Assembly (NCBI GenBank): GCA_902623545.1
Contig: CACNUI010000004.1
Location: 36,860 to 100,859 of the forward strand
Reading direction: 5' to 3'
Source: an uncultured Alphaproteobacteria bacterium
Lineage (GTDB): Bacteria; Pseudomonadota; Alphaproteobacteria; HIMB59; GCA-002718135
DNA: 64,000 nucleotides
Both the position numbers and the translations under genes were made by a program. This document shows, one piece after another, positions 22,542-39,451 of the stretch; within the stretch, counting starts at the first letter, position 1; each line of letters opens with the position of its first letter. The notes beneath the pieces were generated by a model, which was not told the DNA's origin, did no database searches, and was given only the letters and a program-made list of their open reading frames with translations.

Positions 22542-22719
22542 TTTTTACTTTCTTTTAAAGATATTCTTAAGGACAAAATCATTGTCTTTTTTTGATAATC
22601 TCCAAAGACAATAGCCCAAAAAAGCAATCCATAATAATGCAAATAAAAAAATATTATCCATCATAAAAAAGTAGATGGATTGAGTAAATGATTGAACACT
22701 AAGATAATTCATAAAGAAT

Positions 22720-22741
22720 AAGGGCAGATTACTCTGCCCTT
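22720..22741 (-). terminator. Rho-independent terminator of the amt / small-ORF transcript
   Basis: AAGGGCAGA-ttac-TCTGCCCTT forms a perfect 9-bp stem 17 nt after the small-ORF stop. On the minus strand it is followed by the U-rich stretch UAUUCUUUAU. Confidence 0.6.
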
Positions 22742-22757
22742 AACAAATATTCAAATA

Positions 22758-22931
22758 TTATTTGTGTTTATCAGCAACTTCACTCTCATGCCTTGCAGCT
22801 GACCAAATAATGCCTACGCATATTGCAGCTACAACCAAGCTGAGGAATACTAATATTCCGGGAGAATCTGCCCATGTAAAATAAGCATCTACTCCTTCCC
22901 AACTATTTTCTGGTCCAGGAAATGAATTCAT
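22758..22931 (-). CDS. Unannotated 57-aa single-pass membrane protein translationally coupled to amt
   Basis: My own translation is MNSFPGPENSWEGVDAYFTWADSPGILVFLSLVVAAICVGIIWSAARHESEVADKHK. The ATG lies 15 nt after the amt stop and is preceded by AAAGGAAC. The ORF is below the size cut-off of the supplied track. Confidence 0.5.
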   Translation of the reverse strand: MNSFPGPENSWEGVDAYFTWADSPGILVFLSLVVAAICVGIIWSAARHESEVADKHK

Positions 22932-24230: not shown

Positions 24231-24313
24231 ATTTTCTCCTTCCGAGTATATAAAAATACCGTTTGACTCATTTAATTATCAATATGGAAGTTTTAGAAAT
24301 GCGAGATTTGATC

Positions 24314-24365
24314 TGCGTTCCTTCAGTTAAAACTTACTTCCGTCTCAATAAGCGAGATGAACGAT
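24314..24365 (-). promoter_or_regulatory. glnA RNA motif (glutamine riboswitch)-like aptamer in the amt 5' leader
   Basis: The minus-strand RNA is AUCGUUCAUCUCGCUUAUUGAGACGGAAGUAAGUUUUAACUGAAGGAACGCAG. A closing helix CGUUC/GAACG, an internal UCUC/GAGA hairpin, and the ACGGAAGUA and GAAGGAACG blocks match the motif consensus as I remember it. Confidence 0.7.
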
Positions 24366-24482: not shown

Positions 24483-25808
24483 ATGTCACAGGATCTTTCA
24501 AAAATTGCTAAACAAAAAAAAATTAAATATTTTCTAATAAGTTACGTTGATTTCTTTGGAGTATTACGTTCAAAATTAGTTCCAGCACAAGTAATCAAAG
24601 ACATGCAAAAAGAGGGTGCTGGGTTTGCTGGGTTTGCTACTTACCTTGACATGTCTCCTGCTGACCCTGATATGGTATCAATACCGGATCCCTCGAGCTT
24701 AATACAATTACCATGGCAACCTGAAGTTGGATGGCTTGCAGGTGATTTATGGATGGATGGAAAGCCAGTTCAATCATCACCAAGGGTAATGCTTAAAAAT
24801 CAAATTAGCGAATTAAAGAAAAAAAATATGTTTTTAAAATCCGGTGTCGAATGTGAGTATTTTTTGATTTCACAAGATGGCAATTCTATTGCTGATGAAA
24901 AGGATCAGGCGTTTAAACCTTGCTATGATCAATCAGCTTTAATGAGGCAATATGATTTAATCAAAGAAATTTGTGATTCTATGATTAAACTTGGTTGGGG
25001 GCCTTATCAAAATGATCATGAAGATGCTAATGGCCAGTTTGAAATGAATTGGGATTTTTCTGACTGCCTAACAACTGCTGATAGACATGTTTTTTTTAAA
25101 TTTATGGTCAAAGCGCTTGCCGAGAAAAGAGGTTTAAGAGCAACATTTATGCCAAAACCATTTTCAAATAAAACAGGAAATGGTTGTCACGCGCATGTAT
25201 CCTTATGGGATAAAAAAGGTAGAAATATTTTTTTGGATAAAAAAGATAAATTAGGTTTATCTAAAAATGCTTATAATTTTATTGGTGGAATTATGCATTC
25301 AGCAGAAGCCTTAACAGCTTGGTTTAATCCAACAGTAAATAGTTTTAAAAGAATCAACGCACCTGTAACTGACTCAGGAGCAACTTGGTCTCCAAATACA
25401 ATTACATATTCAGGAAATAATAGAACACATATGATAAGGGTACCAGGTTCAGGAAGATTTGAATTAAGATTAATGGATGGAGCAGTTAATCCTTACCTTC
25501 TTCAAGCAGGAATTATTGCTGCTGGGATGGATGGGATGAAAAATAAAAGAAATCCTGGTAAGCCAATCCATATCAATATGTATGAAGAAGCTCATAAAAT
25601 TAAGAATGCAAAAAAACTTCCAAAAAATCTTGATATAGCGCTTACGAATTTATCAAAAAGTAAAGTAATGCAAAAAGCTTTTAGTCAAAAAACTATTAAT
25701 TCTTATGTTAAATTACGTACAACGGAAATTAAACAATTCAAAAAATCCAGTGATAGCAAAAAGAAGGGTATTACCAATTGGGAAAAAACAAATACTCTTG
25801 ATTGTTAA
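24483..25808 (+). CDS. Glutamine-synthetase-family ligase, type III (GlnT)-like; candidate gamma-glutamyl-amide synthetase
   Basis: GS catalytic blocks are ECEYF, DHEDANGQFEMN, NGCHAHVSLW, NSFKR and RFELRLMDGAVNPYL. It is transcribed divergently from amt. Confidence 0.75.
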   Translation: MSQDLSKIAKQKKIKYFLISYVDFFGVLRSKLVPAQVIKDMQKEGAGFAGFATYLDMSPADPDMVSIPDPSSLIQLPWQPEVGWLAGDLWMDGKPVQSSPRVMLKNQISELKKKNMFLKSGVECEYFLISQDGNSIADEKDQAFKPCYDQSALMRQYDLIKEICDSMIKLGWGPYQNDHEDANGQFEMNWDFSDCLTTADRHVFFKFMVKALAEKRGLRATFMPKPFSNKTGNGCHAHVSLWDKKGRNIFLDKKDKLGLSKNAYNFIGGIMHSAEALTAWFNPTVNSFKRINAPVTDSGATWSPNTITYSGNNRTHMIRVPGSGRFELRLMDGAVNPYLLQAGIIAAGMDGMKNKRNPGKPIHINMYEEAHKIKNAKKLPKNLDIALTNLSKSKVMQKAFSQKTINSYVKLRTTEIKQFKKSSDSKKKGITNWEKTNTLDC

Positions 25809-26784: not shown

Positions 26785-28134
26785 CTAGATTGAATGAAAG
26801 TTGTCTACACCAACAGTGTAATCAGTACCTGCTAAAGGAACTTTTGCAAGTGCTGAGGCTTCCATTGTTAGAGCAGCTAAATCTTCTGGTTCTAATGAGT
26901 GAATATTGGTTTTACCACATGCTCTAGCTAATAGCTGAGCTTCCAATGTCATAGAGTGTAAAAAATTATATACTCTTAATGCAGCATCATCTGGATTTAA
27001 TCTCTTTCTTAATTTTGGATCCTGAGTAGCAACACCAACTGGGCATCTCCCTGTATGACAGTGATAACAATCACCAGCTTCAACTCCAAGTTCTTTTTCA
27101 AAGTCTGCTTCCGGAATATCTTTGTTACAATTTAAAGCAACTAATGCAGCAGTACCTACAGAAATACAATCGGCGCCTAAAGCCAGAGCTTTTGCCATGT
27201 CAGCTCCATCTCTCAAACCACCTGCAAATATTAATGTAACATCTCCAGATTTTCCAACATCATCAAGTGCTCTTCTTGCTTCTCTAACAGCAGCAATACC
27301 TGGTATACCTGTATTTGCAGCAGCAATGTGAGGTCCTGCTCCAGTTGATCCCTCCATACAATCTAAATAAATTGAATCCGGATCGCATTTTGCAGCCATA
27401 CGAACATCATCATAAACTTTTGCAGCACCAAGTTTTAATTGAATTGGTACTTGATTGTCTGTTAATTCTCTTAATTCTTGAACCTTTAATGCTAGGTCAT
27501 CTGGACCGAGCCAATCTGGATGTCTTGCTGGTGAACGTTGGTCAATACCTGCTGGCAATGATCTCATTTCAGCTACCTGATCAGTAACTTTTTGACCCAT
27601 AAGGTGTCCACCCATACCAACTTTTTGACCTTGTCCAATAAATACTTCAATACCATCAGCTAGTTGTGCGTGATGAGGATTAAAGCCATATCTTGATTGA
27701 ATACATTGGTAATACCATTTATGTGAATATCTTCTTTCATCAGGTATCATTCCACCTTCACCAGAACACGTTGCGCTACCTGCCATCGTTGCGCCTCTAG
27801 CAAGTGCAGTTTTTGCTTCGTAAGAAAGCGCTCCAAAACTCATTGAAGTAATATATACTGGAATATCAAGCTCGATTGGATTTTTACATCTTGGACCAAT
27901 TACAGTTTTTGTTTCACATTTTTCTCTGTAACCTTCAATTACAAATCTGGTAAGAGTGCCTGGCAAGAAAGTAAGATCATCCCAATGTGGTATCTTTTTC
28001 ATTAAAGCCATACCACGCATACGATATCGACCTAATTCAGATTTAATATGGATATCGTTAATTACTTCAGGCGTAAATATTGCGTTACGTCCTAAAATAC
28101 TTTTATCTTGTTTTTTCTTTTTTTTACTTGCCAT
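26785..28134 (-). CDS. mgsC: Glutamate-synthase FMN-domain-like protein (N-methylglutamate synthase subunit C-like, GlxD type)
   Basis: GltB domain-2 blocks are SGEGGM, FAGGLRDGADMAKALALGAD and C-terminal CHTGRCPVGVATQDP. Operon context is with the GATase-II and GXGXG genes. Confidence 0.8.
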   Translation of the reverse strand: MASKKKKKQDKSILGRNAIFTPEVINDIHIKSELGRYRMRGMALMKKIPHWDDLTFLPGTLTRFVIEGYREKCETKTVIGPRCKNPIELDIPVYITSMSFGALSYEAKTALARGATMAGSATCSGEGGMIPDERRYSHKWYYQCIQSRYGFNPHHAQLADGIEVFIGQGQKVGMGGHLMGQKVTDQVAEMRSLPAGIDQRSPARHPDWLGPDDLALKVQELRELTDNQVPIQLKLGAAKVYDDVRMAAKCDPDSIYLDCMEGSTGAGPHIAAANTGIPGIAAVREARRALDDVGKSGDVTLIFAGGLRDGADMAKALALGADCISVGTAALVALNCNKDIPEADFEKELGVEAGDCYHCHTGRCPVGVATQDPKLRKRLNPDDAALRVYNFLHSMTLEAQLLARACGKTNIHSLEPEDLAALTMEASALAKVPLAGTDYTVGVDNFHSI

Positions 28135-28157
28135 TCCTAATTTCCTCCGTTTTAAAA

Positions 28158-29000
28158 TTAAATTGCACCTTTCCTCTCACTCGGTTCAAGATTATCGTAA
28201 TTCCATAATTTTTTACCAGAAACAATTTTTGTCATTTTTTTAAAATCAACTTTTTTATCAATTTCTGCGACTTTTAATTTTCTTTTTAACCAATCCACAT
28301 CAAGGTCAGTCATTTCAGCTTCAACAGCATCTGCTCCAAGAGATTTAATATTACCTCCAACAAAAATAGTTCCATCATAAAGTGAATCAGCTAGGTTCGG
28401 ACCAACATCTCCAAGTATAACAATTCTACCCCTTTGCATCATGAAACCAGTGAATGCACCGGCATCGCCACCAACAATAATTGTTCCGCCTTTCATATCT
28501 ATTCCAGATCTGGCACCAACACTTCCTTTACATATTAAGTCACCGCCTCTAATTGCAGCACCAAAACAAGAACCAGCATTTTTTTCTACAACAACTTTTC
28601 CAGCCATCATATTTTCAGCACATGACCATCCAACTCTTCCAGATATTCTAACATTAGGACCGTCAACAGAACCAATACCAAAATAACCAAGACTTCCCTC
28701 AACAATAAGATTTAGTTTATTAAGAATTCCAACACCTATACTATGCTTTGATCCTGGATTTTTAATAACTATAGTTCCATATCCTTGAGACATTAATTCC
28801 TTAATTTTTCTATTTATGTCTAAACATTCAATATCTTTTGCATCTATTTCTGTGCGTTTATTAAAGTCAACATCATAGGCATCATGATAGAAAAAATTTT
28901 CTGATTCCTCAGGGTTAAAAAAAACTTGCTGAGTGCGCCCTGTTAGCACTTCTTCATGAAGTCCCATTTCTGAAGATTTATGTCCTTTTATGCTTGCCAT
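28158..29000 (-). CDS. mgsB: GXGXG-motif glutamate-synthase domain-3-like protein (N-methylglutamate synthase subunit B-like, GlxC type)
   Basis: Repeated glycine-rich beta-helix motifs (GSLGYFGIGS, GDAGAFTGFMMQRGRIVILGDVG). Confidence 0.8.
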   Translation of the reverse strand: MASIKGHKSSEMGLHEEVLTGRTQQVFFNPEESENFFYHDAYDVDFNKRTEIDAKDIECLDINRKIKELMSQGYGTIVIKNPGSKHSIGVGILNKLNLIVEGSLGYFGIGSVDGPNVRISGRVGWSCAENMMAGKVVVEKNAGSCFGAAIRGGDLICKGSVGARSGIDMKGGTIIVGGDAGAFTGFMMQRGRIVILGDVGPNLADSLYDGTIFVGGNIKSLGADAVEAEMTDLDVDWLKRKLKVAEIDKKVDFKKMTKIVSGKKLWNYDNLEPSERKGAI

Positions 29001-29929
29001 ACTTTAACCTCACCTTCATATGGATCATATGTATCAATTTCAGTTGGCATGACACTACGAATTGCGACTTCCTCAGAAGCCAGCGCAACTAAATCATCAC
29101 TTTCATAAAGAACCATCGGTTTAGCGGCCATGGTGTCTTTGGCCATACCTAATTTGTCTTTTGTTGCAACTAAGTAAGTAAAAACACCGTCCAAATGTTC
29201 TAAAGATCCTCTCATTGCTTCTTCTAAATCCATACCCTCTCTAATTTTATCTGCCAGATATACTGCAATTAGTTCAGAATCACAGGAAGACAAGAAACGC
29301 ATTCCCTTTGCTTCAAGTGCTCTTCTATTGTTCCAATAATTTGTTAGCTGACCATTATGAACAACAGAAACATCACTAAAAGGGTAAGCCCAATATGGAT
29401 GTGCAGATCTTATATCGACACCTGACTCAGTTGCCATTCTTGTGTGACCAATTCCATGAGTGCCGGAAAATTGATTTAAGCTGTATTGATCAGCAACAAC
29501 TGATGCATCCCCAATATCCTTAATTAGTTCTAAAGATTTACCTAAAGATTGTATTTCAGTCTCCTCAACTGATTCAATTTTTTTTGCTAAATCTAATAAA
29601 TCACCATCATAAGAAATTACATATCTAAATGAATAGTCAGTAATTTTCTCATCATCATATATAGTAGCACCTACTTCATTTATTTTTTTATCAACTTCTT
29701 TTCTTCTGGCAGCATAAACACTTGGATCCTCTTTAACAGCAGTGGTACCTTCTTTAACATTTTCCCCTACCTTATATCTTAAAATATAATTATTAGACTC
29801 TCCTTCTCCATATAAAGCATAGCCCGTAGAGTCGGGTCCACGATGCTTCAGAGATTGAAGCATTTTTTGCATTTCTCCACCTACATTGTTTGAATTTCCT
29901 CTATGAATAATACCTGCTATTCCGCACAT
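28988..29929 (-). CDS. mgsA: Class-II (Ntn) glutamine amidotransferase-like protein (N-methylglutamate synthase subunit A-like, GlxB type)
   Basis: MCGIAGI N-terminal nucleophile Cys and the HTRMATES block. It overlaps the mgsB-like start by 13 nt. Confidence 0.8.
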   Translation of the reverse strand: MCGIAGIIHRGNSNNVGGEMQKMLQSLKHRGPDSTGYALYGEGESNNYILRYKVGENVKEGTTAVKEDPSVYAARRKEVDKKINEVGATIYDDEKITDYSFRYVISYDGDLLDLAKKIESVEETEIQSLGKSLELIKDIGDASVVADQYSLNQFSGTHGIGHTRMATESGVDIRSAHPYWAYPFSDVSVVHNGQLTNYWNNRRALEAKGMRFLSSCDSELIAVYLADKIREGMDLEEAMRGSLEHLDGVFTYLVATKDKLGMAKDTMAAKPMVLYESDDLVALASEEVAIRSVMPTEIDTYDPYEGEVKVWQA

Positions 29930-29947
29930 CTTTTTTATTCCTCTCTA

Positions 29948-31420
29948 CTATGGTAAAATATCTAAATAAGTATCAACATCCCACTGGGTTACTGCAGATA
30001 GGAATTTTTCCCATTCATCTTTTTTGTAATGCATAAATACTCTAAGCATTTCATCAGGAAGAGCAGATTTAATAGTTTCATCACTATCTAATCTGTCTAT
30101 AGCTTCCCCTAAAGTTAATGGTAACTTATCAACTTTTTTACCAGCTTTCATTGCTTCATAGATATTTTGTTTTTCAGGCTCTCCTGGATCCATATTCTTA
30201 TCTAAACCATCATCAAATGCTTTTAGAATGCCACCTCCTAGTAAATAAGGATTGTGTGAAGAATCAACTGATCTATACTCTACTCTACCTGGTGCAGAAA
30301 CACGAACACTACACGTTCTGTTTTGATAACCCCAATCTGCATAAACTGGAGCCCAAAAACCTGTATCCCATAACCTTCTGTAAGAATTAACCGTTGGTGA
30401 TCCAAGACAAGTAAGTGCTGGCAAATGATTTAGCATTCCAGCAATACTATTGAGTCCTACTGGGCCTGGCTTTACCGCATCAATTTTTGGATCAGGCATA
30501 AACATATTTTCTCCACCTGATATATGAGTAAATACTTGCTCCATACCAGGTAATGGATCATTACCTATTGGAGTGGATTTTAATTCTCCACCTTTCCAAA
30601 GTGACACATTAGTATGACATCCATTCGCAGATACGCCCATGAATGGCTTACTCATAAAACATGCTATTAAATTAAACTCTCTAGCAACTTGTGCACAAAT
30701 TTGTCTGTAAGTTGAAAGCCTATCTGCATTTCGAAGGACTTCATCATACATAAAGTTAAGCTCTAATTGTCCCGGGGCATCCTCGTGATCTCCTTGAATA
30801 ACATCTAATCCCATCGCACGAGAATATTCAATAACTTTCATATAAACTGGTCTTAATGATTCAAATTGATCAATGTGATAACAATAAGGTCTTGAGAAAC
30901 CGTCACCAGTAGGTTCACCATTATCTTTTTTTGTTAACCACATCATTTCAGGTTCAGTACCAGCTCTTAAATGCATTCCATGCTTGTTTTTAAACTCATC
31001 TTGAAAAATTTTTAAATTACCACGACAGTCTGAAGTAAGATGTCCTCCTGGATTGTCATCTTCTTCTCTATTTCTAAAGCACGTTACAAAAACTCTTGCT
31101 ATTCTTTTATCCCAAGGAAGTTGAACAAAAGTTTCAGGTTCAGGAATACCAACAAGCTCAGAAGCCTCTGGACCGTATCCTATATAATCTCCATGCCTAT
31201 CTATAAAGAGGTTTGCTGTAGCGCCGTATACTAATTGAAAGCCTTTTTCTGCGATAGACTCCCAATGATCAGCTGGAACACCTTTACCAACAATTCTTCC
31301 TGTAACAGAAATAAATTGGTAGTAAATGTATTCAATTTTTAAATCGTTAATTTTTTTTCTAACATCCTTAACAAGCTTGTCTCTTCCAGGCTGGTTAACA
31401 AATTTTTCTAAATCAGTCAT
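29948..31420 (-). CDS. gmaS: Glutamine-synthetase-family ligase (490 aa); gamma-glutamylmethylamide synthetase candidate by synteny
   Basis: GS blocks are EPEMMW, DHEDAPGQLELNF, NGCHTNVSLW, NSYRRL and RVEYRSVDSSHNPYL. It sits between the SoxB/MgdA-like gene and mgsA, as gmaS does in known methylamine clusters. Confidence 0.6.
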   Translation of the reverse strand: MTDLEKFVNQPGRDKLVKDVRKKINDLKIEYIYYQFISVTGRIVGKGVPADHWESIAEKGFQLVYGATANLFIDRHGDYIGYGPEASELVGIPEPETFVQLPWDKRIARVFVTCFRNREEDDNPGGHLTSDCRGNLKIFQDEFKNKHGMHLRAGTEPEMMWLTKKDNGEPTGDGFSRPYCYHIDQFESLRPVYMKVIEYSRAMGLDVIQGDHEDAPGQLELNFMYDEVLRNADRLSTYRQICAQVAREFNLIACFMSKPFMGVSANGCHTNVSLWKGGELKSTPIGNDPLPGMEQVFTHISGGENMFMPDPKIDAVKPGPVGLNSIAGMLNHLPALTCLGSPTVNSYRRLWDTGFWAPVYADWGYQNRTCSVRVSAPGRVEYRSVDSSHNPYLLGGGILKAFDDGLDKNMDPGEPEKQNIYEAMKAGKKVDKLPLTLGEAIDRLDSDETIKSALPDEMLRVFMHYKKDEWEKFLSAVTQWDVDTYLDILP

Positions 31421-31447
31421 ACTTTCCTCCCGTTTAACCTACTTGAT

Positions 31448-32794
31448 CTAACTCCAAGGAAATGGACTATTAGATGTAGGATGTAAATTTCCTTGTTCGT
31501 ATCTTGAAAATCTAAAAGGTTCTAGAAGTTTACTTTTTTCCCCCAATACCTCATCAGCAACAAGCTTACCAACTCCGATCATTTTATAACCATGATTTGA
31601 GTCTGCAATCAAGTAAACATTTTCTCTAAAAGTATCAAAAATAGGGAAAGAATCAGGAGTAAAACATCCTAATCCACCAGTTGCTCCCTTTTTAAATAAA
31701 TGAGATTTGCCTTCAAATCTTTTGTGGCAATGAGCTAAAGCTGATGTCCACATATGAGCAAAATGATCATCTAGAGTGAATTCTGAAGACTTAGGACCAT
31801 ATGGATCAACTAATACACCTTCTCCTCCAGCCTTACCAACCTTGTAAGGTGATGAACCGCCTTGAATACCATTAAAATGAAAATCAGGTTTGTAATAAAT
31901 TCCCCAAAGCTCATCAGTAATAAGTGATTTATCTACATCAGAATAAAGTGGCGCATCGGTATCTACATGAAGAACTGGTGGCATATTATCATCATCTGTT
32001 TTTAAAAAACCTGGCTCTACTCCAAGTACACCTTCTGTTAAAAACCAATATTGCCACATTGGAACATTGTTATGCATTTCACCTTTAGAATTTTTAATTG
32101 AAATTTGATTTGGCAAATCCATCATGTCCCAAAATGTTTTAACCCATGGCCCTGCTCCAACTATAACATGATCACATTTAATTAGACCTTTATCAGTCTC
32201 TATGCCAGTAACTGCATTTGAATTAGACCCAAATTCAAAACCTTTTACTTCTGTTCCAGTAAGAATTCGCACTCCTTCTGCTTCAGCTTTGTCGGCTAAT
32301 CCATAGATAGAAGAGGTATTATTTGCATACCCCCCTCTTTTTTCGTGAAGAACACTAGTGATACCTTGGGCTTGCCAATCACTAAAATATTTTTTCATGT
32401 ATTGTTCTGATTCTTTTTTTCCTTGAATAAATATAGAATCGTAACCAATATTTTTTTGTTGAGCATAAATTTCTGCAACATCATTTTCCATACATTCTGG
32501 GCTTATTTGCATGTATCCTACATCATGGTAGTGAAAATTTTTTGCATCACTCTCCCAAACCTCTACACACATTGCCATTAACTCTCTCATCGCAGGCTGA
32601 TAGTAATTATTTCTAATTACACCACATGCAATTCCACTTGCCCCTGCAGCAATGCTGTCTTTATCAATTACTAAAATTTTAGACCCATCACCTTTACCTT
32701 TAGCTTTCAATTTTGCAGCTAGGTGCCAAGCCGTACTTAATCCATGTATACCAGCTCCAATAATGGCATACTCAACTTTTGATGGTATCGACAT
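31448..32794 (-). CDS. FAD-dependent oxidoreductase, sarcosine oxidase beta / N-methylglutamate dehydrogenase subunit A-like
   Basis: YAIIGAGIHGLSTAWHLA dinucleotide fold and GACGVIRNNYY block typical of the SoxB family. It is the first gene of the operon. Confidence 0.7.
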   Translation of the reverse strand: MSIPSKVEYAIIGAGIHGLSTAWHLAAKLKAKGKGDGSKILVIDKDSIAAGASGIACGVIRNNYYQPAMRELMAMCVEVWESDAKNFHYHDVGYMQISPECMENDVAEIYAQQKNIGYDSIFIQGKKESEQYMKKYFSDWQAQGITSVLHEKRGGYANNTSSIYGLADKAEAEGVRILTGTEVKGFEFGSNSNAVTGIETDKGLIKCDHVIVGAGPWVKTFWDMMDLPNQISIKNSKGEMHNNVPMWQYWFLTEGVLGVEPGFLKTDDDNMPPVLHVDTDAPLYSDVDKSLITDELWGIYYKPDFHFNGIQGGSSPYKVGKAGGEGVLVDPYGPKSSEFTLDDHFAHMWTSALAHCHKRFEGKSHLFKKGATGGLGCFTPDSFPIFDTFRENVYLIADSNHGYKMIGVGKLVADEVLGEKSKLLEPFRFSRYEQGNLHPTSNSPFPWS

Positions 32795-34657: not shown

Positions 34658-37009
34658 ATGGAACTTAATTTAAAAAATTTTAATATAAGAAATAGTAAAC
34701 CAATTATTCTTGGTAATGCAGGTTTACCAGAAAATACTGAAAGATATCATCTAAATGGAATGGGTATTATTGGTATTGATATATATAAAGATGATAAAAT
34801 CAAAATAACAAATATTGAAGGATCACAAGTTTGTGAAATTACCTTTTTTGATAAGAATGGAAAATGCATTTCTCTTACATCTAAGAATTTTAATAATGAA
34901 GCAAACTTTATTAAAAATAAAATTAAAGAAAAAAATTATATAAATTTTTTAGAAAGACTTAAAAAGAAAAAATTTGATATCAGTAATCTAAAATCTTTAA
35001 ATATTTTCAATGAAGATAGTTTGAGCAATGATTCAATTAATTTAAATATTGAAAACGATGGATTTGCAATCTTTGCAGCACCTGGAAAAGATATGGAAAT
35101 TGATTCTAATGATGCCCCTTCTGATTTTTATATATTTATTGAAAGAAAAAATAAAAAAAACCAAAAAGATGAAGCCTTTTTACCTGAGCCATTAGCTGAT
35201 GTAAAAAATGAGATTTTAGTAAAAAAAAGTTCTGCAATTTCTTACGAAGTTAAGAAAGGTGATTTTATACAAATAATCGACATGTATGGAAGGCAGTGCT
35301 CAGATTTTAATGCATTTGATAGTGATGCATTACAAAAAGGAAGGGAGTATTCAATTGATCCAACAGCAACCAGATCTTTAATTGGTAATTCATATCCTAT
35401 GCCTGGTCTTTCTTCTAAATTTTTCGATAGAAACCAAGATCCACTTATAGAAGTGATGCAAGATAGTATTGGAAGGCATGATACTTTTGGGACTGCATGT
35501 TCTCTAAAAACATATGAAGACCAAGGATATTTTGGTCACATAAATTGCTCAGATAATTTTAATTATTCTTTAGATTCATTTGGAATTGAAAAAAGAAATG
35601 CATGGCAGGCTGTAAATTTATTTTGGAATACTGGAATAGATGATGCAAACGTATTTACTTCTGAAATGCCTTGGTCAAGACCAGGCGATTATGTATTATT
35701 TCAAGCACAAAAAGATTTAGTATGTGTTTCATCTGGTTGTCCCGATGATATTGATCCAGCAAATGACTGGAACCCGACAGATATTTTTGTTAGAATATAT
35801 AGTGAAAAAAATAAATTTTCTAAATCTATTGGATATAGAAAAAATGCTGATGCTGATTTTATGTTAACAAAAGAAACTGGTTTTCATTCAAGAACGTCTA
35901 AACTTACAAAAGACATGATGGAAAGTGCGGGTTATTGGATACCAGCAAAATATAATAACCACGGTGCGATATCTGAATATACAGCATGTAGAGAAAATGT
36001 TGTGATGATGGATTTATCTTCTTTAAAAAAATTTGAAATTGTTGGCCCTGATGCTGAAGAATTAATGAATATTGCATTAACAAGAAATGTAAAGAAACTA
36101 TCTATTGGACAAGTTGTCTATTCTGCAATGTGTTATGAAAATGGAACAATGATTGATGATGGAACACTTTACAGAATGACTGAACATAATTTTAGATGGA
36201 TATGCGGAAGTGATTATTCGGGTGAATGGTTGAGAGAACTTTCTAAAAAATTAGATTTGAGAGCTTGGGTTAAATCTTCATCAGATCAACTGCATAATAT
36301 TTCAGTTCAAGGTCCAAATAGTAGAAAAGTATTAAACAAAATTATTTGGACTGCTCCAAATCAACCCGAAATAAATGATTTAAAGTGGTTTCATTTTTCA
36401 ATTAGTAGGATTGGAGATCATAAAGGTGTGCCCCTAATGGTCTCTCGAACTGGTTATACAGGTGAATTAGGATATGAATTATATTGTCACCCAAAGAATG
36501 CTGCAGATATCTGGGATGCTGTTTGGGAAGCAGGGAGAGAATTTGGAATTGTTCCAATGGGATTTGAAGCATTAGATAAATTAAGAATTGAAGCCGGTCT
36601 AATTTTAGCAGGACATGAGTTTAGTGATCAAACTGATCCCTTTGAAGCCGGAATAGGTTTCACTGTTCCGCTTAAATCTAAAGAAACCAATTTTATTGGT
36701 AAAGATGAGCTAATAAAAAGAAAAAATAATCCTCAAAAAAAATTAGTAGGTTTAGAAATAAATGGTAATGAAGTAGCTCAACATGGAGACTGTGTTCATA
36801 TCGGTAGAGGGCAAGTAGGTATTATAACAAGTGGCACATTATCTCCTGTATTAGATAAAAATATTGCACTTTGTAGAATTGACTCAAAATATTCTGAATT
36901 AAATACAGAGGTTGAAGTAGGCAAATTAGATGGCCATCAAAAAAGAATAGCAGCTAAGGTTGTCAGTTTCCCTTTTTACGATCCTAGTAAGTCAAGAGTA
37001 AAAGCATAA
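34658..37009 (+). CDS. tdm: Trimethylamine N-oxide demethylase (DUF1989 domain fused to a GcvT-type tetrahydrofolate-binding domain)
   Basis: The 783-aa two-domain architecture has a central YGRQCSDFNAFD region (DUF1989-like). C-terminal aminomethyltransferase blocks are GYTGELGYELYC and EALDKLRIEAGL. tmm and tmoX are adjacent. Confidence 0.85.
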   Translation: MELNLKNFNIRNSKPIILGNAGLPENTERYHLNGMGIIGIDIYKDDKIKITNIEGSQVCEITFFDKNGKCISLTSKNFNNEANFIKNKIKEKNYINFLERLKKKKFDISNLKSLNIFNEDSLSNDSINLNIENDGFAIFAAPGKDMEIDSNDAPSDFYIFIERKNKKNQKDEAFLPEPLADVKNEILVKKSSAISYEVKKGDFIQIIDMYGRQCSDFNAFDSDALQKGREYSIDPTATRSLIGNSYPMPGLSSKFFDRNQDPLIEVMQDSIGRHDTFGTACSLKTYEDQGYFGHINCSDNFNYSLDSFGIEKRNAWQAVNLFWNTGIDDANVFTSEMPWSRPGDYVLFQAQKDLVCVSSGCPDDIDPANDWNPTDIFVRIYSEKNKFSKSIGYRKNADADFMLTKETGFHSRTSKLTKDMMESAGYWIPAKYNNHGAISEYTACRENVVMMDLSSLKKFEIVGPDAEELMNIALTRNVKKLSIGQVVYSAMCYENGTMIDDGTLYRMTEHNFRWICGSDYSGEWLRELSKKLDLRAWVKSSSDQLHNISVQGPNSRKVLNKIIWTAPNQPEINDLKWFHFSISRIGDHKGVPLMVSRTGYTGELGYELYCHPKNAADIWDAVWEAGREFGIVPMGFEALDKLRIEAGLILAGHEFSDQTDPFEAGIGFTVPLKSKETNFIGKDELIKRKNNPQKKLVGLEINGNEVAQHGDCVHIGRGQVGIITSGTLSPVLDKNIALCRIDSKYSELNTEVEVGKLDGHQKRIAAKVVSFPFYDPSKSRVKA

Positions 37010-38500: not shown

Positions 38501-39451
38501 ATGTTTAAATTATTTAGAGCAATTGCATTTGCAGCTACTCTATTATCTTTCATGACAGTTGCTAGTATATCTAAAGCGGCAGATCCAATTAGAATTCCGG
38601 TTCTTAACTGGACGAGCCAAATAGTTATGGCAAACGTCATGGCACAGATATTTGAGGAGATGGGTCATACTGCAGAACTAGTTCCAGCTGAGTCAGCTTC
38701 AAGATATGAAGCAGTTAGAATTGGCGATCTGCACGTAGCGCATGAAACTTGGGAGTCAACTATGGCTCTGCCTTTTTATGAAGCTATGGACAAAGGTGGA
38801 TTAATTGATGCTGGTAGTCATGATCTAATTACATTCGAGGAAATGGGAGTTCCTAACTGGGTAATTGAAGAAGGATTATGTCCTGGGTTACCAAATTGGG
38901 AAGCACTTAAAGACCCTGCTTGTGCAGCAAACTTTGCTACAGCTGACTCTGATGGAAAAGGTCGTTGGTTAGAAGGACCTTATGAGTGGCATACTGATGT
39001 TATGCCTAACAGACTTAAAGGTCTGGGTATTGATGATCTATGGACAGTAAAATTTGCAGGAAGTGCTGATGCACTTTGGGCTGAATTAAAAGCAGCAAAA
39101 GCTGAGGGAAGAGGAACAGTTATATTTAACTGGTCTCCTAACTTTACAGATGCTGCTGGTTTTACTTTCATAGAATTCCCACCATACTTTGAAGGATGTA
39201 GGCTTGAGCAAGGTGGTTCATTAGAAACTACTGGTTGTGGATCTCCAAAAGGTTGGCTTAAAAAAGCTGCTCACATTAAATTTCCATTATCTCATCCAGA
39301 CGCATACAAATTCTACACTAAAATGTCATTCACTGCTCCACAAATTGGAACAATGGCTGACTTAGTAGATAACCAAGGTCTAAGTCATGCAGATGCAGCA
39401 GCAAAATTTATTGCTGATAATAGAGATCAATTTGATCTTTGGAAAAAATAA
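38501..39451 (+). CDS. tmoX: Glycine-betaine-type periplasmic substrate-binding protein, TMAO-binding TmoX-like
   Basis: Signal peptide MFKLFRAIAFAATLLSFMTVASISKA and a GGGAGG RBS. OpuAC-family resemblance, adjacent to tmm/tdm and ProVW-type genes. Confidence 0.75.
   Translation: MFKLFRAIAFAATLLSFMTVASISKAADPIRIPVLNWTSQIVMANVMAQIFEEMGHTAELVPAESASRYEAVRIGDLHVAHETWESTMALPFYEAMDKGGLIDAGSHDLITFEEMGVPNWVIEEGLCPGLPNWEALKDPACAANFATADSDGKGRWLEGPYEWHTDVMPNRLKGLGIDDLWTVKFAGSADALWAELKAAKAEGRGTVIFNWSPNFTDAAGFTFIEFPPYFEGCRLEQGGSLETTGCGSPKGWLKKAAHIKFPLSHPDAYKFYTKMSFTAPQIGTMADLVDNQGLSHADAAAKFIADNRDQFDLWKK

Follow-up and report, generated by a model that had tools for sequence, protein, structure and literature searches.

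The window analysed here, by which we mean the whole 64-kb stretch of DNA (64,000 nucleotides, nt), belongs to an alphaproteobacterium of the SAR11/HIMB59 type and is identical to the single-cell genome contig CACAJM010000006.1 of GCA_902532825.1. Its minus strand carries amt, a gene for an Amt-family transporter (start codon ATG, 24230-24228), preceded by a leader and followed by an open reading frame (ORF) of 57 amino acids (aa), ORF57. Since this ORF is followed in turn by a terminator-like hairpin, the transcription unit is taken to be leader-amt-ORF57 (Table 1). The leader holds what on sequence grounds is a genuine type-1 glutamine riboswitch aptamer (glnA RNA, RF01739), and we propose, with a probability of roughly 60%, that through it translation initiation of the amt-ORF57 transcript is under OFF-switch control by glutamine. 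Earlier work has established the aptamer class, its ligand and its association with amt genes. New here is the assignment of an amt-linked copy to a SAR11/HIMB59-type alphaproteobacterium and, possibly, a conserved expression platform which is unlike the cyanobacterial one and is predicted to act negatively.

Table 1. Positions in the window of the amt transcription unit, the parts of its leader and the neighbouring genes
Feature	Position	Strand	Remarks
amt, Amt-family transporter, 427 aa	22947..24230	-	PF00909, E 8e-62
57-aa small membrane protein ORF, predicted to be co-transcribed with amt	22758..22931	-	follows every fetched amt ortholog
Terminator-like hairpin closing the amt-ORF57 unit	22719..22742	-	10 pairs, 5 of them G-C; T-rich tail
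Glutamine-I (glnA RNA) aptamer	24312..24365	-	RF01739, 62.9 bits, full length
Aptamer P1	24363-24359 with 24320-24316	-	CGUUC/GAACG
Aptamer P2 hairpin	24357-24344	-	UCUC/GAGA
Aptamer P3	24334-24332 with 24327-24325	-	AGU/ACU
Junction (loop-E) strand ACGGAAGUA	24343-24335	-	
Junction (loop-E) strand GAAGGAACG	24324-24316	-	
Small hairpin AGAU-CAA-AUCU directly after P1	24304..24314	-	present in free and in aptamer-constrained folds
UUUCU pyrimidine box	24295..24299	-	complements AGGAA (24322-24318) of the aptamer 3′ junction strand; helix of the free minimum free energy (MFE) fold
ACUUCC box (candidate anti-Shine-Dalgarno and anti-aptamer segment)	24286..24291	-	pairs GGAAGU (24341-24336) or Shine-Dalgarno GGAAG (24243-24239)
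UUGAUAA	24276..24282	-	complements P2 loop and 3′ strand UUAUUGA (24351-24345); free-fold helix; closest relatives only
Inverted repeat I1	24276-24291 with 24336-24351	-	16 nt, 75% complementary (repeat finder); ACUUCC in arm 1
AUGAGU..AACGGUA box (anti-P1/P2)	24257..24271	-	putative second switching element
ACUC, then Shine-Dalgarno GGAAGGAG (24243-24236)	24236..24247	-	ACUC invariant in 31/31 leaders
Type III glutamine-synthetase-like gene	24483-25808	+	TIGR03105, 626 bits, above its cut-off
Glutamine amidotransferase, GXGXG and Glu_synthase-domain genes, then second glutamine-synthetase-like gene and flavin adenine dinucleotide (FAD) oxidase	26785-32794	-	

The whole window was scanned with cmscan against Rfam 15, and RF01739 is the sole family that it matches above the gathering score. 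The match (24365-24312, minus strand) reaches 62.9 bits against a gathering score of 35, with an E-value of 1.5e-11, covers model positions 1-53 of 53 and is far above chance. An earlier note on this DNA, which quoted the minus-strand sequence AUCGUUCAUCUCGCUUAUUGAGACGGAAGUAAGUUUUAACUGAAGGAACGCAG (24365-24314, as we find it too), had named the glnA RNA motif and proposed this scoring run, which bears the identification out. All upper-case positions of the RF01739 consensus are matched in the alignment, including AUCGUUCA, GACGGAAGUA and GAAGGAACGCA, and the three-way junction of the family is present, with P1 enclosing the P2 and P3 hairpins. P1 and P2 are the closing helix and the enclosed hairpin which that note had described. 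P2 in most relatives is AUCUC/GAGAU, with a fifth A-U pair added to that of the window, and the first pair of P3, A-U in the leaders of the window group, is G-C in other relatives. Both junction strands are free of mismatches in the window and invariant in the 31 leaders introduced below. Lying on the amt strand, 82 nt before the start of the gene, the aptamer falls within the predicted 5′ untranslated region (UTR) of a nitrogen-metabolism gene, and the window copy presumably binds L-glutamine. In a relaxed-threshold scan the model for glutamine-II/Downstream-peptide RNA (RF01704) overlaps the site with 21 bits (gathering score 33, E 0.77), which does not qualify it for that type, and no further Rfam match was found at the aptamer site. 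Two other matches in the window, both below their gathering scores and both with an E-value of about 0.7-0.8, were judged to be due to chance: snoU30 at 36212-36288 (minus strand, 28 bits against 45) and PYLIS_2 at 38511-38610 (minus strand, antisense to an ORF, 22 bits against 36).

That glnA RNA is linked to ammonium-transporter genes in marine metagenomes was noted in the first description of the motif (Weinberg 2010, PMC2864571). The link was confirmed later, when the host organisms and the regulatory sign of the copies beside transporter and glnA genes were called open (Klahn et al. 2018, PMC6212724). All validated glutamine riboswitches are cyanobacterial and act as ON switches for glutamine-synthetase inactivating factors (PMC6212724). 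RF01739 matches in SAR86 and Pelagibacter metagenome-assembled genomes (MAGs) and in pelagiphages have received passing mentions (PMC12379486, PMC9004378). Apart from such Rfam annotations, our literature search found no described glutamine riboswitch in HIMB59 or AEGEAN-169.

Orthologs of amt are found in SAR11/HIMB59-type marine Alphaproteobacteria at 74-99% identity and, more distantly, in Methyloceanibacter and other Hyphomicrobiales at about 60% identity. Their leaders, taken from genome amt loci and from a metagenome scan for the P2/junction pattern of the aptamer, gave 31 distinct amt leaders with the aptamer, all of the SAR11/HIMB59 type (alignment A1). In these the aptamer lies 77-92 nt before the amt start and is nearly invariant, while the linker of about 85 nt is variable save for three islands: ACUUCC, about 23-25 nt after P1; (G)AUGAGU..AACGGU; and AACUC followed by the Shine-Dalgarno sequence (SD). 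Among the fetched genome loci, 15 carry an intact aptamer at the same position, four carry a degraded one (L010, L012, L013, L053) and the rest have none; the latter include L004, L005 and L025, whose amt is 90% identical to that of the window. The degraded aptamers, whose junction core is deleted or mutated, stand about 60-170 nt upstream of amt and keep a hairpin of the old P1/P2 5′ strand (AUCGUUCAUCU) with an AGAUGAG box, most clearly in L012 and L053, L013 being more degraded. Such remnants, together with the three close relatives that lack the aptamer, indicate that the leader was gained, lost or replaced among close relatives. The same two observations, the second of which makes the element dispensable in some lineages, could also suggest that it has no part in regulation, being an inactive relic or a match by chance. 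We consider this very improbable for the window: the covariance-model E-value is far too low, every conserved consensus nucleotide is intact, and 52 columns are invariant across the 31 leaders, 32 of them within the aptamer, despite coding regions that differ by up to about 20%.

The ACUUCC island has two possible partners, and its pairing in the window amounts to -6.3 kcal/mol with GGAAGU of the aptamer and to -4.6 kcal/mol with GGAAG of the SD. The availability of this SD-complementary segment (24291-24286) would be mutually exclusive with aptamer folding. The earlier note had pointed to the twofold complementarity of its core, CUUCC (24290-24286), to the aptamer GGAAG and to the SD GGAAGGAG. 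The positions are as given there, and the complementarity recurs among relatives: CTTCC is found in 19 of the 31 linkers at a constant distance (about 23-25 nt) downstream of P1, where dinucleotide shuffles predict 1.0 (maximum 4 in 300 shuffles), an enrichment over composition of about 19-fold. In A1, the aligned box pairs with the aptamer GGAAGU in 93% of cells.

The second island, AUGAGU..AACGGUA in the window, complements the 5′ flank and the P1 and P2 strands of the aptamer. In the free fold of the window, AACGGUA (24263-24257) pairs with UAUCGUU (24366-24360) and UGAG (24270-24267) with CUCG (24356-24353); alternatively, GAGU (24269-24266) can pair with ACUC (24247-24244) just before the SD. 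Its helices Ha and Hb are paired in 89% and 96% of cells, compared with 35-53% overall when the partners are slid. By this conservation the box would be a second switching element beside CUUCC, and the better conserved of the two. Since ACUUCC, UUUCU, UUGAUAA, UGAG and AACGGUA all pair with aptamer strands, the linker amounts to an imperfect reverse complement of the aptamer. Anti-aptamer pairing is reached with differing sequences in different lineages, L006 and L183 having contiguous 10-15-nt complements of UUCAUCUCAU, and free folding of nearly all leaders leads to one common long-range structure. Several relatives also have a CRGAU..AUCUG hairpin akin to the small hairpin that follows P1 in the window.

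A second set of pairings appears when the aptamer is enforced. In the window, the CUUCC segment then pairs with the SD at GGAAG, the stretch between them folds into two local hairpins, and the start codon becomes paired too. In most relatives GAGUUAA pairs with UUAACUC directly 5′ of the SD, and CUUCC(UU) pairs with (AA)GGAGG. Both sets are conserved in A1. The helices of the unbound state are paired in 92% of cells, and those of the bound state in 83%, as compared with 35-53% and 37-59%, respectively, when their 3′ partners are slid by 1-3 columns. Changes in the linker strand are mostly A/G or C/U and keep the pairing, and one closing pair changes on both sides, from U-A to A-U or G-U. RNAalifold, run on the 31 leaders, recovers P1 and P2 and beyond these predicts a CGG/CYG pairing that spans the aptamer junction and is not part of the Rfam model, as well as a CUC/GAG hairpin of 3 bp at the SD.

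The direction of the putative switch was assessed as the mean unpaired probability of the SD region, from -14 to -5 relative to the AUG, with the aptamer either hard-constrained, as a proxy for the bound state, or left unconstrained. The 31 real amt leaders average 0.24 under the aptamer constraint and 0.55 without it, whereas the same leaders with a dinucleotide-shuffled linker give 0.38 and 0.37. For the window leader the values are 0.37 enforced and 0.54 free, against 0.41 and 0.32 with a shuffled linker, which supports a predicted open SD in the unbound state of the window. In all 11 lineage clusters the SD is at least as unpaired in the free as in the bound state, which is the OFF direction, and shuffled linkers show no direction. 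In the 56 cyanobacterial gifB-type leaders, which are experimentally of the ON type, the values are 0.31 enforced and 0.29 free, and none of the 56 goes in the OFF direction; hence the constraint does not by itself produce the OFF effect seen in the amt leaders. By the same token the method finds no switching at all in gifB-type leaders and so is blind to a known ON mechanism, which limits the trust to be placed in its calls of sign. A further hint of the OFF direction may come from the relatives with a deleted aptamer core, where the hairpin that is kept, box1:box3, formed by the old P1/P2 5′ strand with an AUGAG box, would correspond to the SD-free conformer.

Taken together, these pairings suggest the following model. 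At low glutamine the aptamer would be unlocked and the 3′ linker would zip back onto the aptamer strands: ACUUCC would pair with GGAAGU, UGAG and AACGGUA with the 5′ strands of P2 and P1 and, in the window, UUGAUAA and UUUCU with further aptamer strands. The SD GGAAGGAG would then be single-stranded and the transporter would be made. At high glutamine the ligand would hold P1, P2, P3 and the purine-rich junction together and the pyrimidine boxes would be released; CUUCC could then pair with GGAAG of the SD, and GAGU with ACUC, so that translation would fall. Translational control is the simplest reading, because the leader has no terminator-like element.

The OFF logic had been put forward in the earlier note as well. 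It gains from the agreement among the 11 lineage clusters and from the directionless shuffles, but only in part from the window itself, and several points weigh against it. Occlusion of the SD in the bound state of the window is no better than with shuffled linkers (0.37 versus 0.41), and the difference between its own bound and free states is small (0.37 versus 0.54). Seven leaders (L007, L008, L009, L101, L143, L178 and L183) show little or no difference between the states. True covariation is almost absent from the switching helices of the 31 leaders, only two pairs with double changes being found in the helices counted and RNAalifold reporting no compensatory pairs; this is so because in each switching helix one of the strands belongs to the invariant aptamer or to the SD. 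The MFE of the whole leader is unremarkable (z = -0.5 relative to shuffles). With nearest-neighbour energies the aptamer fold lies 9-19 kcal/mol above the alternative fold, and the native aptamer is missed even when the domain is folded alone. Such a model is thus crude and leaves out tertiary energy, and the decision between the folds would be kinetic or co-transcriptional. We therefore rely on the comparative data more than on single-sequence thermodynamics.

The weak occlusion in the window also leaves room for the opposite sign, in which the same aptamer would activate translation when glutamine is bound, as it does in the gifB leaders of cyanobacteria. Cells would in that case make the transporter under nitrogen-rich conditions, for instance in order to export or recycle ammonia from methylamine oxidation. 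Every glutamine-I or glutamine-II riboswitch characterised by experiment is an ON switch (PMC6212724, PMC6698751), which counts against our proposal, and genes associated with glnA RNA tend to be down-regulated on nitrogen depletion (Weinberg 2010, PMC2864571). The nearest physiological comparison points the same way. In Pelagibacter ubique (SAR11_1310; Meyer 2009, Smith 2013), a syntenic amt stands beside a type III glutamine synthetase (GS) gene and glxBCD-like genes, with a 57-aa ORF downstream, and post-transcriptional control by nitrogen status has been observed: the Amt protein appears only in nitrogen-replete cells while its mRNA is unchanged, and the authors proposed an effector-activated leader RNA and a role in export (PMC3870248). 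This is opposite in sign to what we predict for the window. However, the Pelagibacter leader differs in sequence and matches neither RF01739 nor any other Rfam family; the comparison is thus suggestive but not decisive. Further, the predicted folds show no pyrimidine segment that would block the SD in the unbound state alone, and the linker boxes complement aptamer strands, so that an open aptamer would draw them away from the SD. With all 11 lineage clusters giving the OFF direction, which ON-type gifB leaders never do, we regard ON control as unlikely, although it is the most serious competitor of the OFF switch.

Alternatively, the aptamer may act mainly by other means than occlusion of the SD, such as Rho-dependent termination, mRNA decay in the AU-rich linker or intrinsic attenuation, and the pairings with the SD would be incidental. 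A long (about 85 nt), AU-rich, untranslated linker could well suit Rho or RNase E, and such a mechanism would sit easily with the weak thermodynamic evidence for SD occlusion in the window. However, the leader contains no terminator-like hairpin with a U-tract, the only strong one found being that which follows the 57-aa ORF. The box3:box4 hairpin is followed by GUAAGGAGG and not by a U-run. Moreover, those linker elements that are best conserved adjoin the SD or contain it. We therefore hold this explanation to be improbable, and translational OFF control is retained as the preferred one.

Compared with the type 1 glutamine riboswitch of the Synechocystis gifB leader, the window element has the same P1/P2/P3 three-way junction with its ACGGAAGUA and GAAGGAACG strands, and it, too, is located in the (predicted) 5′ UTR of a gene of nitrogen metabolism. 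In contrast, its host is a SAR11/HIMB59-type alphaproteobacterium instead of a cyanobacterium, its platform is about 85 nt long as compared with about 40 nt in gifB leaders, and it has anti-aptamer boxes and a predicted OFF response where gifB has a demonstrated ON response. The type 2 glutamine riboswitch (RF01704) shares common sequence blocks and the ligand; it differs in being a pseudoknot fold without a three-way junction and an ON switch restricted to marine picocyanobacteria. In its predicted logic the window element resembles translational OFF riboswitches such as the Escherichia coli thiM thiamine pyrophosphate (TPP) riboswitch and SAM-II, in which the ligand-stabilised aptamer frees an anti-SD segment and aptamer and anti-SD compete for one strand. 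Aptamer and ligand are different in the window, where in addition GGAAG of the purine-rich aptamer junction mimics the SD, so that one pyrimidine box could serve both as anti-aptamer and as anti-SD.

We consider it slightly better than an even bet that this is the first OFF-type glutamine riboswitch: a type-1 aptamer joined to an 85-nt platform in SAR11/HIMB59-type Alphaproteobacteria, in which ACUUCC would alternate between the aptamer GGAAG and the SD, and the second box between the P1/P2 strands and the pre-SD segment, so that glutamine would shut off an Amt-family, possibly methylammonium, transporter. The two-conformer model names the nucleotides involved and makes it testable whether glutamine exerts negative control over the uptake of ammonium or methylammonium. 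It bears on how abundant oligotrophic ocean bacteria with few protein regulators, such as the streamlined host of this window, may regulate nitrogen uptake. If the OFF sign is correct, it would answer the question of Klahn et al. 2018 concerning the hosts and the sign of the amt/glnA-linked aptamers; if the prediction fails, the finding would be one more annotated instance of RF01739.

The transporter itself stays below the trusted cut-offs of the NCBIfam Amt models (TIGR00836, 208 bits against a cut-off of 343) and therefore belongs to a divergent subfamily. The 57-aa ORF has no Pfam or NCBIfam match. Its product looks like a single-pass membrane protein with the motif SWEGVDAYFT..[TM]..AARHE, TM being the transmembrane segment, and the ORF is kept after all fetched amt orthologs, from SAR11/HIMB59 single-cell genomes to Methyloceanibacter and other Hyphomicrobiales. 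Possibly, it is a partner subunit of the divergent Amt subfamily.

Upstream, amt is transcribed divergently from the type III GS-like gene, which starts at 24483. The glutamine amidotransferase, GXGXG and Glu_synthase genes farther on form a split glutamate-synthase-like set, and two small ORFs of 181 aa and 138 aa among these genes have no family match. We take this layout, as is usually done, to be a putative gamma-glutamylmethylamide/N-methylglutamate route for methylamine. The earlier note had placed amt at the head of a methylamine island. The neighbouring genes fit such an island, but amt, being divergent, does not head their operon. Throughout the SAR11/HIMB59 set amt is syntenic with the GS-III and Glu_synthase genes, and the neighbourhood corresponds to the SAR11_1305-1316 region of P. 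ubique (discussed in PMC3870248). No PII/GlnK gene follows amt, as had been remarked before, and tblastn found none anywhere in the window. PII is reportedly encoded elsewhere in HIMB59 genomes (PMC3870248), and the RNA may plausibly stand in for a local PII input, as the earlier note suggested.

A scan for sigma-70 promoters upstream of 24365 returned no convincing site, and a sigma-54 promoter is absent from the window. Sigma-54 -24/-12 boxes (TGGCAC-N5-TTGC) are seen 123-134 nt upstream of amt in L068-L074 and L078, from Methyloceanibacter and other Hyphomicrobiales, where a GS-like gene lies immediately upstream of amt on the same strand; they are missing from the AT-rich relatives too, except for a distant match in L053. 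Sigma-54 -24/-12 promoters are typically activated by NtrC under nitrogen limitation. By analogy, the boxes of the Hyphomicrobiales hint at the same physiological sign as an OFF switch, and the riboswitch may stand in for the NtrC/sigma-54 control that they suggest.

The aptamer-less amt orthologs (L014-L067, for example L026:2850-3000 and L019:2850-3000) have another conserved leader, AAAGUAAAAU..AAGRA..AGG.AA..GAUUCU, with an additional UAUUUUUAUAAAAAUA hairpin before the SD. None of the 19 orthologous loci without the aptamer matches an Rfam family at gathering score. It probably corresponds to the SAR11_1309/1310 intergenic region described as 'riboswitch-like' (Meyer 2009, Smith 2013), and it could be a functional analogue of the glutamine riboswitch.

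Other metagenomic copies of the aptamer stand mostly before cyanobacterial DUF4278 (gifB-like) ORFs, and a few before glnA, gltB or genes for small proteins. Some AT-rich marine contigs carry tandem glnA-type aptamers, two copies 19-76 nt apart, upstream of type I glutamine synthetase, glnA (L199, L115), and tandem copies with the same spacing are also found upstream of a 123-aa secreted protein (L086, L125, L127, L186, L200). Finally, in L171 a single glnA-type aptamer lies about 290 nt upstream of the gene for the glutamate synthase large subunit (gltB).

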